This document shows positions 2,368-10,521 of a stretch of DNA of 10,521 nucleotides, piece by piece. The stretch is from the UHGV virus genome UHGV-0062500; one strand, written 5' to 3'. Below the pieces are notes generated by a model. The model was not told the DNA's origin and searched no databases. It worked only from the letters and a program-made list of their open reading frames with translations. Numbering within the stretch: position 1 is the stretch's first letter; the number at the start of each line of letters is the position of its first letter. The DNA is from a virus. Position numbers and translations under genes: made by a program.

Positions 2368-2668
2368 TTTCTTCTCGGTCAAATCGGTGTTTACAATGGC
2401 GACATTTATAACGAAGATTACTAGTCTGCCAATGGACCAATTGCACCTGTTCAGTTCCACATTCAGGGCAATTAGGAACGTTTTTAGAAGCACGTTCGCG
2501 GCGTTCAACCATGACCATTACAGAATCCCAATTAATAGGGCTGCTATAATCATCACAACCATGAATCTTTCTACGCATTTCCAAATCGTCTTCTTCACCG
2601 GCCATAATAATTTTAATTAAACTGGAATTACTTGAAGCTGCAATGTCTTCTAATAAACGCTTTTTCAT
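2354..2668 (-). CDS. Small zinc-ribbon protein, 104 aa
   Basis: ATG at 2668-2666 overlaps the upstream TGA (ATGA) and has GAGGT 7 nt upstream. Contains CPECG...(17 aa)...CRHCKH, a C4 zinc-ribbon signature. N-terminal half is acidic. Confidence 0.6.
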
Positions 2669-3591
2669 TTCAATACCTCAATAGCATTACGTAAACCATT
2701 TGCTTTTGCATTAAGAGCTTTTAACAATTTGGTGTGTTCTGCAATTTGGGCTTCAACTTCAGTCAAACGGGCATTGAGATATTCACGTTCTTCACTCAGA
2801 TTATCAACCTTTTCTACTTTAGGCTCTTTTACAACTGTCTTATATGTATTAGGGTTCTTCAGTTTAATTAGAATGCGTGAACTGTATAACATTGAACCAT
2901 TATCTTCGGTTTCGTCATACATTTCCACTACGTCCATAATTTTTAACATCATGCGGAGTTTATAAGACAACGAACGAATAGTTTTGTTGTGCTTATTAAT
3001 TTCTTTAGCTGTCATGGTGCCGAGATTACGTGAGTAGTAATAAGGAACCTGGATATTAATTAATACTGATGAACCACCTGGCTTGTGTGTTACTTCATCA
3101 GCAATAACCCAATCCTTAACATGAACTGTATTTGTACGGTCATCGCCCGCGGTAAATAGTTTACGAGCATGCTTAAAAAGCATATTCACTTGGTCATTGA
3201 ATTGACAAGCGAATTTATCAGCAAATTTAGTTTCAGGAATGGTAGATAACCAATCAGCCAAATGGGTCTTTTTAACATCGTTAACAATAGTAAATTCAAC
3301 CAAATCAGTTATAGATGTCGCAGATTTAATGAAGCTCGGCTTCATAAAGTTTTTAATGTTATCACGAGCTACAGTAGAAGATAACATACGAGAACGTTTA
3401 AACCATTCAAGCAAATTGCCCAACGAATGAGAATAAGCGTTTTGAGTATCTTTACAGATATGATTTTCCTGGCCAACATATTGAAGGAAATCACGAAGAA
3501 TATTATTAATTACTGCTCTGTGTCCGATCTGATAATTGCGGTGTTTAGTAATAAGACTGTCAAAATAATCAATATAATGTTTACGAGTCAT
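2665..3591 (-). CDS. Hypothetical protein, 308 aa, with C-terminal coiled-coil tail; paralog of the upstream 340-aa protein
   Basis: Track ORF starts on TTG at 3642 and runs through a promoter. The real start is ATG 3591-3589, with a perfect GAGGAG 6 nt upstream. Shares LQYVGQ / EWFKRSR / MDVV blocks with the 340-aa neighbour. Confidence 0.7.
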   Translation of the reverse strand: MTRKHYIDYFDSLITKHRNYQIGHRAVINNILRDFLQYVGQENHICKDTQNAYSHSLGNLLEWFKRSRMLSSTVARDNIKNFMKPSFIKSATSITDLVEFTIVNDVKKTHLADWLSTIPETKFADKFACQFNDQVNMLFKHARKLFTAGDDRTNTVHVKDWVIADEVTHKPGGSSVLINIQVPYYYSRNLGTMTAKEINKHNKTIRSLSYKLRMMLKIMDVVEMYDETEDNGSMLYSSRILIKLKNPNTYKTVVKEPKVEKVDNLSEEREYLNARLTEVEAQIAEHTKLLKALNAKANGLRNAIEVLK

Positions 3592-3619
3592 ATTAATCTC
3601 CTCAGTAGAAAGTAAGAAC

Positions 3620-3649
3620 ATTATACCACATCCTTGTGGCAAAGTAAAC
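3620..3649 (-). promoter_or_regulatory. Sigma70-type early promoter upstream of the 308-aa gene
   Basis: Minus strand GTTTACT-17/18 nt-TATAAT: -35 at 3649-3643, -10 at 3625-3620, followed by the GAGGAG SD and the ATG at 3591. Confidence 0.55.
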
Positions 3650-4671
3650 TAGTTCAGTGCATTTAGTGCATTGTTCAGTTTAGAACGTTGCTTTGTCAGA
3701 TTTTGAACCCTTGACTGAGCTTGTTCTAACGCCTTTTCAGCTTCTAGCACTTCATTGGTCGCTTTAACGAGTTCATCATCTACTGCCTTAAGAGACTTCT
3801 CAATCGCGTCAGCGTGCCATTTTTCTACAGGTTTAAAATTTGAATTTTCAGTAGGAAGAAAACTCACTTTATTAAGTTTACATGCATCTATATTGCTTGA
3901 GCTATACATCCAAAATTTAGGATCGTTTGATAAGTAATTAGATAAATTTAAGTTATCTTGCAATTCCTGCTTTTTCTCTCGCGGGACTTCGTCCTTTCTC
4001 AAAAAATCGTATTTAAATGAAACGATCATATCAAGTTCATATGATGTTGTATCTAACTTAAATCGTTCAAAACGAGGTAAAATCTTAGATTGAACAGCAG
4101 CAACAACATCCATATACTTAAATGCTTCTGTCAGCTGTGATTTAAGACATTCACAAATTGAAAGAGAATTTTTAGTATTAGGCTTAAAGCTAATTCGTGC
4201 AGTTCTATTATTTTCTTTTAACGGTCTTACTTCCATCTGAAGAGTATAACCATCAAATTTCAGGTTCTTTAAGTTAATATCAGAGCCTTTTAATCGACTA
4301 GCAGTAGACAAAATTTGCTTTAATTGTTTACGGAATAGAGCAATAAATCTCCATTCAATACGATAATGATTTGGATTGAAAAATCCAGATGATAAATCGA
4401 CCTTACTTTGACCAACGCCTTGAACAATCAAAGGATTTTTATAATCAATAGTTTTACAGAAATCGGTGAGCTGTTCACGAGCAGTCATTTGTGTAATATA
4501 CCCTGCTTTACTAAAATTACGCACCCATTCACTGCTATTCGTATACTTAAAGTGATGAATAACACGATTAACTTTATCAGGGTCTAAATTATTTTCACAC
4601 AAAAATGTCATAACATCACGAGTATAGCTGGCATTACGAACCATATCTTCAATTTGAGAACGAGTTTTCAT
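3649..4671 (-). CDS. Hypothetical protein, 340 aa, with C-terminal coiled-coil tail
   Basis: ATG at 4671-4669 with AAGGA 5 nt upstream, overlapping the upstream TAA; TAG at 3651-3649. C-terminal 50 aa (LVKATNEVLEAEKALEQAQSRVQNLTKQRSKLNNALNALN) has a heptad-like pattern. Confidence 0.75.
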   Translation of the reverse strand: MKTRSQIEDMVRNASYTRDVMTFLCENNLDPDKVNRVIHHFKYTNSSEWVRNFSKAGYITQMTAREQLTDFCKTIDYKNPLIVQGVGQSKVDLSSGFFNPNHYRIEWRFIALFRKQLKQILSTASRLKGSDINLKNLKFDGYTLQMEVRPLKENNRTARISFKPNTKNSLSICECLKSQLTEAFKYMDVVAAVQSKILPRFERFKLDTTSYELDMIVSFKYDFLRKDEVPREKKQELQDNLNLSNYLSNDPKFWMYSSSNIDACKLNKVSFLPTENSNFKPVEKWHADAIEKSLKAVDDELVKATNEVLEAEKALEQAQSRVQNLTKQRSKLNNALNALN

Positions 4672-6625: not shown

Positions 6626-6928
6626 CTAAAAGAAACTTCTTTCACAATTTTTTCCACTGAACCAGGCGCTCACTGCTTTCTTAGTCTCAGGAGCAGTGTT
6701 ATCCATAAACCATTCAAAGGCAGCCTTTTTATGATTCTGGAGGGCTTCTCGGGCTTTAATCTGCTCACGGTCTATTAACACTAACATATGAGCCTTTCTT
6801 GTCACCAGGGGCTTTTTATGATTTTTTGAATATTCCCAATCATTTGTCCATCGCATCGTTGTTGCGAATTGAAGTACAGCTTCTTTAATCTTAGTTTCGT
6901 AAATTTCACGAGCCTTTGAGTATAACAT
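6626..6928 (-). CDS. Hypothetical protein, about 100 aa
   Basis: ATG at 6928-6926 is preceded by GGAGG (spacing 5); the track ATG at 6940 has no SD. TAG at 6628-6626. Confidence 0.6.
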   Translation of the reverse strand: MLYSKAREIYETKIKEAVLQFATTMRWTNDWEYSKNHKKPLVTRKAHMLVLIDREQIKAREALQNHKKAAFEWFMDNTAPETKKAVSAWFSGKNCERSFF

Positions 6929-7010
6929 CACTACCTCCATTTACCGGTTTAATTCTAGTCATCTTTTTAATGGCAGTCCATATAATCTATTTCTGAACTT
7001 CCTTTTTGTC

Positions 7011-7729
7011 TTAGGATTCTTCTAAATGTCTTTTCTGAAAAGTTGATACCATACTACGATACGGTTCATTTGGATATCCGTGTTTTATAGCTTCCTTTGT
7101 AAATTTTCTCCATCCATATTTAGTTTCTTTCCAAAGCTCGAATAATTCATCTTCATACTGCCATATAGTTAAATGAGAACGCTTTGCAGCTTTAATTCCA
7201 TTAATATGCTTTTCTTTTACTGTAGGATTACTTAGTTTCTTTTTAATAATATTACTAACTTTTCTAACAAAAACTGGGTCCTTATATCGTTGCGAAGTTT
7301 TTATTGAAGTGTTTAATTTAGCTTCCGGCGTGGATGTGACCTCTTTCATCTTTTTCTTCATATGTTGTATATGATTAGGATTTTTCCATAAATTTATAGA
7401 ATGCTTTTTGCATTTTATCCTAGTTTCATCTGCAACCTTTCCTCCTTCACCCCCGTATGACAGGTTAACACAGTTTTTTCCATATTTCAATTTACCTGCC
7501 ATGATATATAATATTTCAGCTTGTACCATTTTATCATAATTATCAAAAACTTCTAAAACCGTTTTTGATAATATGTGGTCATTTGACACTTTTACACGTT
7601 CTATATAATTTCCACTACCAACATACGAATCATTGATGTTATTAGTTATATGTCGACCATAATAGTATTTCTTAATACCTGTCTTTAAATTTAATATTTC
7701 AGTTTTATAGATAGTAAAATATTTTTCAT
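7011..7729 (-). pseudogene. Seg-like GIY-YIG homing endonuclease, about 239 codons, disrupted by a 1-nt frameshift at an A5 run immediately after the start codon
   Basis: ATG at 7729-7727 overlaps the ATPase stop (ATGA) but that frame stops after 12 codons. The adjacent frame is open for 46 codons (7730-7590) with no ATG/GTG/TTG and joins the 192-aa track ORF. With six instead of five A at 7726-7722 the protein would read MKKYFTIYKTEILNLKTGIKKYYYGRHITNNINDSYVGSGNYIERVKVSNDH..., GIY-YIG-like and alignable to I-TevI NNKVYVGSAKDFEKRWKRH. The C-terminal half has repeated NUMOD-like basic motifs. Locally AT-rich, with no SD before the GTG at 7589. Confidence 0.45.
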
Positions 7730-8694
7730 TTTAATAATACCGTTTCAGCAATTTCTTCCCAACCGTTTTTGTCGGTCATAATAAAGTCAGCAAGATAAAG
7801 CGCAGTACGCAGTGAAACATTGCGTAAACGATTAACATTGACTTTCATCCATGATAATGCTTTATAAGTTTCTTCATCAGAAAGACCGCGCTTTTGCATC
7901 ATGTCAGTTGAAAGAATAACATCTTCAACCCTGACCATAATTTCTTCATTAGTGTGAACACCCAAATCCAAATAAACTGAGCGGGACACTAATGCTTGTA
8001 AATGTGGAGCAAGTTTAGTACCACGGTCTAATTCGCGGTCAATGTCAACGTTTGTGATAAAAACAATCGTTCCTTTAAATTCAAACTCACGCTCAATGCC
8101 TTTTTCTTCTAAGTAAGAAGATGCAGTGCTCCAGCAGACTTTACGGGTCTCTCCAGTGTCCAGAGCAGCTTTCAGAAGATTAAGAATGTCCATATCAGAG
8201 AAAACATCCACATCATCAATCAAAAGGACAGAATTCTCTTCACGATTATTCCAAAGCTGCTCATAAAGACCGATACCAGAGATTTTACCATTAATGCTTT
8301 TATACTCAATGTATCCAATATCATTTGCTTTATTTAAAGCTTTATCTAAAGAATACGTTTTACCAATGCCTGCTGCTCCTGAGATAATTAATGAACGAAT
8401 GTTTCCGTTAATAATACCATTCGTCATCATTCCCATAACATTAAATCTTTTATTAATGCGGGTTTTCATATCTTCATATGATTCTTTAACTTCTTCAACT
8501 TTTACACCATCATATGAAATGTCTGATTTGTAAACCCAAACACCGCGACGCTTACCGTCAATTTCAACAAAAACTTTACCATCTCCTTGCGCATCTACCG
8601 GAGCATTATCTGGGAACCATTCGCCTAAGAGCTCAAAAGTTCCAGAGATTTCTTTACCGAAGTAAATACCCTTATTGATAGTTACAGTTTTCAT
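7726..8694 (-). CDS. P-loop (AAA+-like) ATPase, 322 aa
   Basis: Track ORF starts at 8811 and reads through a terminator and promoter. The real start is ATG 8694-8692 with GGAG 7 nt upstream. Walker A ISGAAGIGKTYS, Walker B VLLIDDVD, sensor-1-like FITNVD; about 100-aa N-terminal domain before the P-loop. Confidence 0.8.
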   Translation of the reverse strand: MKTVTINKGIYFGKEISGTFELLGEWFPDNAPVDAQGDGKVFVEIDGKRRGVWVYKSDISYDGVKVEEVKESYEDMKTRINKRFNVMGMMTNGIINGNIRSLIISGAAGIGKTYSLDKALNKANDIGYIEYKSINGKISGIGLYEQLWNNREENSVLLIDDVDVFSDMDILNLLKAALDTGETRKVCWSTASSYLEEKGIEREFEFKGTIVFITNVDIDRELDRGTKLAPHLQALVSRSVYLDLGVHTNEEIMVRVEDVILSTDMMQKRGLSDEETYKALSWMKVNVNRLRNVSLRTALYLADFIMTDKNGWEEIAETVLLK

Positions 8695-8728
8695 TTTATT
8701 CTCCAAATCCGTATCAGTTGATAGTTGT

Positions 8729-8757
8729 ATAGTACCATAAAGCTTTATGCTTGTAAA
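8729..8757 (-). promoter_or_regulatory. Sigma70-type early promoter upstream of the ATPase gene
   Basis: Minus strand TTTACA (8757-8752) - 17 nt - TGgTACTAT (8734-8729), with an A/T-rich block upstream. Sits just downstream of the terminator, followed by the GGAG SD and ATG at 8694. Confidence 0.6.
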
Positions 8758-8777
8758 CAACTTTGTGAAAAATTTTT

Positions 8778-8806
8778 GAAATAAAAAGGGAGCCCGAAGG
8801 CTCCCT
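8778..8806 (-). terminator. Rho-independent terminator after the nucleotidyltransferase gene
   Basis: Minus-strand RNA GGGAGCC-UUCG-GGCUCCC (7-bp GC-rich stem, UUCG tetraloop) followed by UUUUUAUUUC, starting 2 nt after the TGA at 8810-8808. Confidence 0.8.
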
Positions 8807-8807
8807 A

Positions 8808-9821
8808 TCATTTATAATAACTTCGATGGTTTTCAAGATAGACCTTCTCAAGGAAGTCATCCCAGAAACTCATGTCTACTTTTTGTTGCATACCGTTCTT
8901 AGAAGCTTCAGTAGATGCTGCTTCTACTTGATCGACCACATCTTCCAAAAACTCTTGGACTGTTTTAAATGGATGTTTACCCAACTTCACGTCGAGAATA
9001 AATGGAGCATCTTGGAGTGGATAAATCAAGTCGCCAGTTTTGTAAATTTCCAATAGTTGAAGTCCACCACGACAAGCATGGCTCAGAGCTTTCCAGTCAA
9101 TACCTTCATTGGCTTCAGCCTTACGAGCACGTTCACCATATTCAGCATCTAATTTGTTCAGTGACTGCTTAAGCTCAATAAGAGAAAGCGTTGTCTGATA
9201 TTTACGACCCAACACAGTGTAGAACGTTTGTGGGCCTGTTTTCTCATGATTATGGAACACCCATTCACAGAATTCGTTTTCTGGAAGACGATGCTTAATA
9301 TCTTCAACTTTAGTGCGACGCTGCTTAATAGAACCATCTTCTTGGTAATCAACCCATTGCTCAGGGATTTGATTAACTACTTTCAATACATCACGTAATG
9401 CAGCCAAACGAGAACCCTTGACACCGTATTTAGAAGCTTGCTTACGGACATATCCTAAATATGATTTCATGTTAGTCGTATAAAAACGAGAACGGTTGTC
9501 TTGAATAAACTTCCACACATCAGGCAAATCAGATTTAACCACTAGTTCAGGTGGAGTGTGAAGCATATCTAATGCTACAGTTTCACCATCTGCTGCTAAT
9601 TTAAAGAAATATTTAAGACTGTATAGTTCATGGTCAATATCATCTTTAGTGTTTTTAGATGATGTGTTGTTAGTGTTTTTACTCATATGCTCTTTAACAT
9701 TTCCGATAAGAATATCGCGAGCAGAAGGAACAAAGATTTCTTTAAAATCTACATCAGATTCTGGGGTAGAAGTTCCATAAAGATGACTACCAAAATAGCT
9801 TTTCATTACTGTTTTCATCAT
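8808..9821 (-). CDS. Predicted Pol-beta-superfamily nucleotidyltransferase, 337 aa
   Basis: ATG at 9821-9819 overlaps the upstream TGA. N-terminal YFGSHLYGTSTPESDVDF is a canonical minimal-NTase motif (G-S-x10-D-x-D), with a candidate third acidic residue in TVALDML. C-terminal about 250 aa is helical. Intrinsic terminator immediately downstream. Confidence 0.75.
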   Translation of the reverse strand: MMKTVMKSYFGSHLYGTSTPESDVDFKEIFVPSARDILIGNVKEHMSKNTNNTSSKNTKDDIDHELYSLKYFFKLAADGETVALDMLHTPPELVVKSDLPDVWKFIQDNRSRFYTTNMKSYLGYVRKQASKYGVKGSRLAALRDVLKVVNQIPEQWVDYQEDGSIKQRRTKVEDIKHRLPENEFCEWVFHNHEKTGPQTFYTVLGRKYQTTLSLIELKQSLNKLDAEYGERARKAEANEGIDWKALSHACRGGLQLLEIYKTGDLIYPLQDAPFILDVKLGKHPFKTVQEFLEDVVDQVEAASTEASKNGMQQKVDMSFWDDFLEKVYLENHRSYYK

Positions 9822-10521
9822 TCAGCCTTATATTCAATAACAGGACATACTTTAGCTTTACGAGCTTTTAAAAATTCAACGATAATCGATTTCTTGGGTT
9901 GAATAGGAGGTAAACCTTTATACGCCCTATCAATATTTTCTACGTGTAAAGCATAATCCTTTTTCCATTTATAATCTTTATATTTTTCATGCAAATGTGC
10001 AGGAATAACAAATGAACCGATAATAAGTAAAACAACCAAAAGCGCAAGTATAAATGCTGATGGAAGAAGAGTCCATAAACTACCGAAAATAAGCCAACGT
10101 TGTAGGCTTTCTGCACAAATAATTGTTAGCCCTACGAGTATAGCACACCCAAAAATAGAAACGAAAAATGTAGGAATGGCAATAGACCAAAAATATGCGC
10201 ATAGTGTCTTAGGTCGTTGCCATTCATCGTTAAACAGTTTGAATAATTTATAGTGCCAAGAGTTTTCATTAATAATCATAATTATCCTTTCATTGAAGGT
10301 GTAACAGTTGTTAATCATAGCTTCAGCTTCTGATTTTGATAATGAAATTTCTCCATTGTTTTGACGAATAGAAATAAAATCCGGATGACGGTCACCACCA
10401 GCTTTTAAAACACACATATAAGTATCAGTTTCACCTTCAATATTTGAAATGATTGAAGCAGTTCCACATGAATGCGGTTTTTGATAAATCAATACAGCTT
10501 TTCTTCCGCCATTTGACTGCT
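9818..10521 (-). CDS. Predicted membrane protein (two transmembrane helices), C-terminal 234 codons; 5' end outside window
   Basis: The track start at 10492 is TTG and the frame is open to the window edge, so the gene is 5'-truncated. Hydrophobic segments YFWSIAIPTFFVSIFGCAILVGLTIICA and LIFGSLWTLLPSAFILALLVVLLIIGSFVI. TGA at 9820-9818 overlaps the NTase ATG. Confidence 0.6.
   Translation of the reverse strand, partial: QSNGGRKAVLIYQKPHSCGTASIISNIEGETDTYMCVLKAGGDRHPDFISIRQNNGEISLSKSEAEAMINNCYTFNERIIMIINENSWHYKLFKLFNDEWQRPKTLCAYFWSIAIPTFFVSIFGCAILVGLTIICAESLQRWLIFGSLWTLLPSAFILALLVVLLIIGSFVIPAHLHEKYKDYKWKKDYALHVENIDRAYKGLPPIQPKKSIIVEFLKARKAKVCPVIEYKAE

Follow-up and report, generated by a model that had tools for sequence, protein, structure and literature searches.

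The window, a stretch of 10,521 nucleotides, is a segment of a T-even (Tequatrovirus) phage genome. It carries endonuclease VII (gp49), pin, nrdC and the nrdC.1-nrdC.11 block, and all of these genes lie on the minus strand. The phage assembly comes from a human-gut metagenome and corresponds to the ENA metagenome contig NODE_1633, which has cov_2.49713 in its name. Between nrdC.10 and nrdC.9 we found a gene for a seg-like GIY-YIG homing endonuclease whose reading frame is broken close to its start (Table 1). On the plus strand of the gene region the only open reading frame encodes 43 aa (7408-7539), and promoter and terminator scans inside the gene gave nothing above background.

Table 1. Features in and around the seg-like gene; positions are those of the window, and residue numbers refer to the frame-corrected protein.
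Feature	Position	Strand	Description
Whole seg-like GIY-YIG homing endonuclease gene (RB32ORF093c orthologue)	7011..7729	-	Frameshifted pseudogene, probable null allele; ATG at 7729, TAA stop at 7013-7011
A5 run	7722..7726	-	Site of the -1 deletion; A6 (codons 2-3, AAA AAA = Lys-Lys) in all intact alleles examined
Residual ATG-set frame	7691..7729	-	12 codons, MKNILLSIKLKY, then TAA stop
N-terminal GIY-YIG catalytic domain, out-of-frame remainder	7440..7721	-	Corrected residues ~4-97; TIY 6-8, YYG 23-25, E72, N89
C-terminal all-helical region with NUMOD3-like repeated helices, presumed DNA-binding	7014..7430	-	Corrected residues ~101-239; from model secondary structure, NUMOD3 matches of relatives and SegB alignment
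192-aa GTG-started ORF reported by gene callers	7011..7589	-	Tail of the broken gene
nrdC.10, upstream neighbour	7726..8694	-	322 aa, AAA-ATPase-like; stop overlaps the endonuclease start
Recoded nrdC.10 3' end, endonuclease carriers only	7726..7746	-	Left insertion junction; putative altered target/immunity region
nrdC.9, downstream neighbour	6626..6940	-	Homology with endonuclease-free genomes restarts right after the endonuclease stop, at ~7010

The endonuclease ATG (7729-7727) overlaps the TGA of nrdC.10 as ATGA and is directly followed by AAAAA (7726-7722). An earlier note on this DNA had described this overlap with the stop of the ATPase gene, the A5 run next to it and a frame of only 12 codons, and the sequence bears out all three. 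The adjacent frame is open from just past a TAA at 7733-7731 to the TAA at 7013-7011. Its first 47 codons, up to the GTG at 7589, include no ATG, GTG or TTG; the note was right that this part is start-free, and its figure of 46 codons was a trivial miscount. When one A is inserted, the frame gives a 239-aa protein starting with MKKYFTIYKTE. The gene spans 719 nt in the window and 720 nt in intact alleles.

The predicted effect of the extra A was confirmed by the match of the corrected protein to intact phage proteins. In tblastn it is 100% identical to those of NIC06P2, PTE-Eco15 and F26 and 99.6% identical to the T6 protein, and the full identity rules out a chance ORF. An intact 720-nt CDS is present in T6, RB32 and RB51, where its start overlaps the nrdC.10 stop and it is annotated as seg-like (RB32ORF093c). 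This label stands in the annotation of RB32, RB14 and RB51 and is noted in T6. The gene itself, a 'putative site-specific intron-like DNA endonuclease, similar to seg', occurs in RB32, RB14, RB51, T6, RB5-RB9 and RB33. It shares with the window gene the site between nrdC.10 and nrdC.9, the start/stop overlap and, after frame correction, 99-100% protein identity. The two differ at codons 2-3, where the window has A5 and the others A6, so that the window frame is broken. Seg-like GIY-YIG genes have already been counted in T6, RB32, RB14 and RB51 (Petrov et al. 2010, PMC2993671, Table 5). On this sequence comparison, the window gene is an allele of the already-annotated seg-like GIY-YIG homing endonuclease gene of T-even phages. 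Literature searches for RB32ORF093c and nrdC.9 found no study of the gene. For nrdC.10, the literature searched discusses a weak AAA-ATPase motif alone.

The Seg-like GIY-YIG identity proposed in the earlier note is supported by PHROG, tblastn, a family profile and the AlphaFold fold. The corrected protein matches PHROG 314 'homing endonuclease' (1.9e-30), and in tblastn it matches VR26 segA (5e-14), SegH (1e-6) and T4 SegB (9e-6). The GIY-YIG or NUMOD match that the note had looked for in Pfam did not appear. Pfam and NCBIfam scans of the corrected protein (hmmscan, single sequence) gave no match even at E <= 1, and a single-sequence search of PDB sequences gave chance-level matches only. We attribute the Pfam miss to the sensitivity limit of single-sequence hmmscan, and it is outweighed by the profile and fold evidence.

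Since a word-indexed protein search gave two proteins only, an exhaustive representative search was needed to build the family. With HMMER it gave 1,438 relatives at E <= 0.001, and 60 of these were used for the family alignment and profile. Pfam assigns SegE_GIY-YIG (PF19835) to 25 of the 60 aligned relatives, GIY-YIG (PF01541) to 20 and NUMOD3 to 18. In hhalign, the family profile aligned with T4 SegB at a probability of 100% (E 7.2e-40, 191 columns, reaching residue 205) and with I-TevII at E 1.3e-8. Against PDB sequences the sole match was the I-TevI catalytic domain (1LN0), which was weak (E 0.21). In this weak alignment the invariant Glu and Asn of the family pair with I-TevI positions 75 and 90, as do the family consensus IY and YiG with the IY and YVG of I-TevI. 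We take E75 and N90 to be catalytic positions of I-TevI.

Among the 60 relatives, Y8, G25, E72 and N89 never vary, and Y23 is found in 59. For I-TevI Arg27 a candidate counterpart is R45 (helix 41-48), but the conservation of this position is not clear, with Arg in 25/60 and Lys in 9/60 relatives; H27 is far better conserved (57/60). The AlphaFold model on the family alignment (pLDDT 95.7) has the N-terminal beta-beta-alpha-beta-alpha order of the GIY-YIG fold, followed by a chain of helices. T-I-Y 6-8 and Y-Y-G 23-25 sit on model strands 4-14 and 20-29, and E72 sits in helix 65-86. The C-terminal model region is a string of ~15-residue helices; the protein itself has no NUMOD3 match, while 18/60 relatives do. 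Judged by profile and predicted fold, the corrected protein is a Seg-family GIY-YIG endonuclease.

The homology with T4 SegB and the other free-standing GIY-YIG homing endonucleases of the SegA-G and SegH group is clear. Like these proteins, the corrected protein combines an N-terminal GIY-YIG domain with a helical, presumably DNA-binding C-terminal region, and its gene is also free-standing between genes and patchy among close relatives. It differs from them in its insertion site, nrdC.10/nrdC.9, and the identity is ~24-31%. I-TevI, unlike the window gene, is intron-encoded and has a zinc finger and a helix-turn-helix in its DNA-binding part. Cleavage and homing have been demonstrated for several Seg proteins (PMC2988022, Table 1), and the window gene is of the Seg type by its sequence.

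The alignment of the locus across T-even genomes, which the earlier note had suggested, revealed a presence/absence polymorphism. A locus megablast against 50,697 phage records gave 503 T-even-like records. The whole segment is present in 67 of them (~13%), the remainder have the flanks only, and all intact alleles examined have A6. The site between nrdC.10 and nrdC.9 is empty in T4, T2 and the T4-like NR1. In T4, which the note had correctly taken to lack a seg gene here, the two genes are separated by a spacer of 94 nt.

On the left side of the insertion, carrier and non-carrier sequences cease to be homologous six codons before nrdC.10 ends. The carrier end reads GAA ACG GTA TTA TTA AAA TGA (E T V L L K stop), and the empty-site end in T2 and NR1 reads GAG GTT ACT CTT CTG AAA TAA (E V T L L K stop). 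With a target site in the nrdC.10 3' end and immune carriers, one would expect just such a recoded stretch at the junction. We infer from this pattern that the 3' end of nrdC.10 may hold the target site and that recoding would make carriers immune. Homologues with 45-46% identity were found in a Klebsiella Jiaodavirus and in Serratia phage 92A1, in each case immediately after an nrdC.10 orthologue (74% and 60% identity, respectively). Their position indicates that the endonuclease lineage tracks nrdC.10 across genera. The recurring link to the nrdC.10 3' end in three phage groups suggests that nrdC.10 is the likely target gene of this Seg-family enzyme.

The lesion of the window gene is the loss of one A from the A6 run. 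All eight other carrier alleles that we aligned (T6, RB32, RB51, G157lw, NIC06P2, FL23, RB3 and AR1) have A6, and five of the eight are intact throughout. In the alignment with T6, RB32, RB51 and G157lw, A5 versus A6 is the sole difference at the gene start. Among the matches listed, only FL12 matches the A5 sequence exactly, and the 59 others (59/59) span 91 nt for the 90-nt query, consistent with A6. Of the 60 tblastn rows listed, 57 were single-piece and full-length.

Independent lesions are present in other carriers. The window strain has A6 to A5 at gene nt 4-9; FL12 has the same change (gene nt 4-9) together with A3 to A4 at ~nt 416; G157lw has A6 to A5 at nt 247-252; RB3 and RB10 have G5 to G12 at nt 277; and AR1 has T5 to T4 at nt 454-458. 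Disrupted alleles occur in 7/67 records, which represent five phages (~1 in 10), and in the carriers examined every lesion lies in a homopolymer. The endonuclease gene has 11 homopolymer runs of at least 5 in 719 nt, compared with 4 in the 969 nt of nrdC.10. The Serratia homologue has an in-frame TGA. Purifying selection on the intact alleles is seen in their variable codons, of which 6 are synonymous and 5 nonsynonymous, over ~138 and ~579 sites (ratio ~0.2). The window copy has no private amino-acid change, which suggests that its lesion is young.

Phage homing endonuclease genes are typically marked by frameshifts and premature stops (PMC10055350), and T4 keeps a defunct gene of this class, I-TevIII (PMC2790892). 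As in T4 I-TevIII and the frameshifted genes of ICP1, a small lesion inactivates the gene and the remaining sequence persists (PMC2790892; PMC10055350). The window lesion differs from these in being a single-base change, apparently very recent and without other damage. Such an allele could therefore still revert, or be rescued if it recombined with an intact one.

Taken as a whole, the window probably holds a homing endonuclease gene that is already known, here as a recent null allele in which one A of A6 has been lost. The intact A6 form would encode 239 aa, and its translation is probably coupled to that of nrdC.10 through the ATGA overlap. During mixed infection, T-even genomes that lack the endonuclease would be cleaved by it close to the nrdC.10 3' end, and recombinational repair would copy the gene into the cut genomes. 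The recoded nrdC.10 end would protect the carriers. In the window strain, replication slippage has probably removed one A at codons 2-3; translation would then end after 12 codons and no endonuclease would be made. The window allele would thus stand for the degeneration phase of the homing cycle. The earlier note had offered three causes for the broken frame, and of these decay fits best and expression by slippage finds no support. The third, a sequencing error, keeps some weight, albeit little.

A sequencing or assembly artefact is the main rival to a recent null allele. The phage gene would then be intact, with a true A6, and the A would be missing only through a homopolymer miscall in a low-coverage contig. 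We consider this unlikely. The k-mer coverage is indeed low (~2.5, from the cov_2.49713 in the contig name), and an 8-nt indel at ~10315 separates the window from its sibling assembly (L006; scaffold_810), which implies either a mixed population or a fault in one of the two assemblies, if not in both. An otherwise pristine gene without a private amino-acid change would also suit a miscall, and the disrupted alleles in deposited genomes are all at homopolymers, where sequencing errors concentrate as well. Against this, A5 is found exactly in the contigs of four assembly records (NODE_1633, k127_16470, scaffold_810 and UMED01029746), which makes the base call independent of the assembler. Where they overlap, the four contigs are 100% identical, save for the one 8-nt indel in scaffold_810; they are probably from one sample or strain and so do not count as independent biological replicates. 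Labels on the contigs are ERR414412 / PRJEB5224 and SAMEA2338790. A search for independent A5 sightings in public contigs gave none in IMG/VR, and the one metagenome contig found was the window strain.

A5 is also present in the unrelated isolate genome FL12, which further argues against an artefact. FL12 is ~96% identical overall and has no other derived site in the gene in common with the window strain. As the sole independent A5 it points to recurrence at a hot spot. A6 runs are classical hot spots of spontaneous frameshifts in T4 (Streisinger slippage model, rII), which makes a real mutation plausible there. Single-base indel errors in runs of 5-6 nt are rare with short-read chemistry, and this also speaks for a real mutation if such chemistry was used.

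We find it very improbable that the A5 allele is still expressed, be it by programmed -1 ribosomal frameshifting, by transcriptional slippage or as a phase-variable on/off switch for a toxic endonuclease. The two diverged phages with the same A-run lesion, the window strain and FL12, and the undamaged remainder of the ORF in the window would be in line with such expression. However, FL12 has the only other aligned allele with the shifted arrangement, the remaining eight of eight being A6 and in frame, and the span of 91 nt in 59/59 other records among the matches listed agrees with this. The FL12 copy is dead regardless, owing to its second frameshift. In the zero frame the sequence is G AAA AAT, which does not fit the slippery heptamer pattern X XXY YYZ, and the predicted folding of an 81-nt segment that includes the run is no more stable than that of its shuffles (MFE z -0.37). 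Efficient transcriptional slippage by bacterial RNA polymerase needs roughly 9 or more A's, and the five A's here are far fewer. Programmed frameshifting and slippage were therefore rejected: the arrangement is not conserved among carriers, and there is neither a heptamer nor a stimulatory structure.

The retention of the ATG AAA AAA start could be read in the same direction, since distant homologues down to 46% identity also begin with ATG AAA AAA TA in frame. This is more simply explained by the coding sequence, the A6 run being just Met-Lys-Lys-Tyr (with Lys-Lys as AAA AAA) in AT-rich codons. A contingency switch at codons 2-3, in which slippage between A6 and A5 reversibly toggles a costly endonuclease in phage populations, would explain the recurrence of the lesion in two lineages, the retention of this start across genera and the otherwise undamaged gene. 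We give it only a slight chance.

It is equally improbable that the 192-aa GTG ORF is independently translated as a nuclease-dead DNA-binding protein derived from the endonuclease, which might act as a site-specific repressor or shield the target site. The ORF is long, it is called as a gene by automatic pipelines and, in the model, it would keep the whole C-terminal helical DNA-binding region; however, no Shine-Dalgarno-like sequence was seen upstream of its GTG or of the next in-frame ATG, and translation from this GTG would begin within the catalytic domain, past beta strands 1-2, and would probably yield a misfolded product. Its conservation as a gene of its own, which the earlier note had named as evidence against a frameshifted endonuclease, was not seen in any relative: the relatives conserve the full-length 239-aa ORF with its upstream codons, and the stand-alone gene was rejected on this ground.

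The main practical consequence of a recent null allele is an annotation correction, and otherwise this is the ordinary death of such a gene. For the 192-aa "hypothetical protein" of the pipelines, the annotation should be changed to the tail of a seg-like homing endonuclease pseudogene that carries a frameshift. The locus is also a small illustration of the life cycle of homing endonucleases, with the gene present in ~13% of the T-even-like records, about a tenth of its carriers inactivated, and the lesions always in homopolymers. Mildly interesting by-products are the view of how the gene decays across its 67 carriers and the steady association of the lineage with the nrdC.10 3' end. In AR1 and RB68, the RB32ORF093c gene is mislabelled as segE.

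The endonuclease gene is also damaged in the records of other phages. In RB3 (L011) a run of G5 has become G12 at nt 277 of the gene, an insertion of 7 nt that splits it into the two ORFs under which it is annotated. We infer that RB10 carries the same lesion. The expansion is unusually large and may have arisen from a sequencing error in the RB3 and RB10 records. In the AR1 and RB68 records the gene is wrongly labelled segE.

Homologues with 45-46% identity to the endonuclease occupy the same place, after the nrdC.10 orthologues, in Serratia phage 92A1 and Klebsiella phage KEN25_1. The Serratia homologue is broken by an in-frame TGA, and its annotation lists two hypothetical proteins; the Klebsiella copy has GGA at this position.

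Between the endonuclease stop and nrdC.9 lies an inverted repeat, GGCAGT...ACTGCC, which is intact in T6, T2, NR1 and RB3. The window has a private C-to-A change inside it, at position 7000, and its version of the repeat folded no better than shuffled sequences.

Another palindrome is found shortly 3' of the nrdC.11 stop codon, within the spacer ahead of nrdC.10. On the minus strand it reads AGGGAGCC TTCG GGCTCCCT TTTTATTT, and it resembles a strong intrinsic terminator or an RNA-stability element. It is terminator-like when read on the plus strand too. The mechanically called nrdC.10 ORF (window 7726-8811, 361 aa) begins at an ATG overlapping nrdC.11, and all annotated relatives start the gene 39 codons further in, from 8694, which gives a product of 322 aa.

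Features of the window phage and of related phages
Feature	Position	Strand	Description
Fused ORF	9818-10492	minus	224 aa; T4_y05I-like 3' end joined in frame to the phrog_944 membrane protein gene
Hairpin	8787-8806	minus	perfect 8-bp GC-rich stem, TTCG loop, then a T-run
Endonuclease homologue	L016:2501-3211		Serratia phage 92A1
Endonuclease homologue	L017:2501-3217		Klebsiella phage KEN25_1

Upstream of nrdC.11, the window phage differs from T4 and FL12, which have the homing endonuclease gene mobD there. The window phage lacks mobD in this region (window 9818-10521 and L006:2247-4782, L006 being a sibling assembly of the same strain), where nrdC.11 is preceded by the gene for a 153-aa membrane protein and two T4_y05I (mobD.1-like) paralogues. 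When the window was compared with L006, 8 nt (TTAAGTAT), flanked by TTAA direct repeats, were present in L006 and absent from the window at about 10315; otherwise the two are identical. In the absence of these 8 nt the 3' end of a T4_y05I-like gene and the phrog_944 gene form one ORF in the window, whereas L006 has two distinct genes here, one of 173 aa and one of 153 aa. Either the phage population is heterogeneous at this point, or the low-coverage window contig is misassembled.

Gene content also differs between nrdC.2 and nrdC.5. T4 has two genes there (L015:8934-11996), nrdC.3 of 927 nt and nrdC.4 of 1002 nt, while the window (2665-4671) has a single gene with a 308-aa product of the Pfam family Phage_T4_Y04OP. 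Judged by this gene count, the window phage seems to lack one paralogue.
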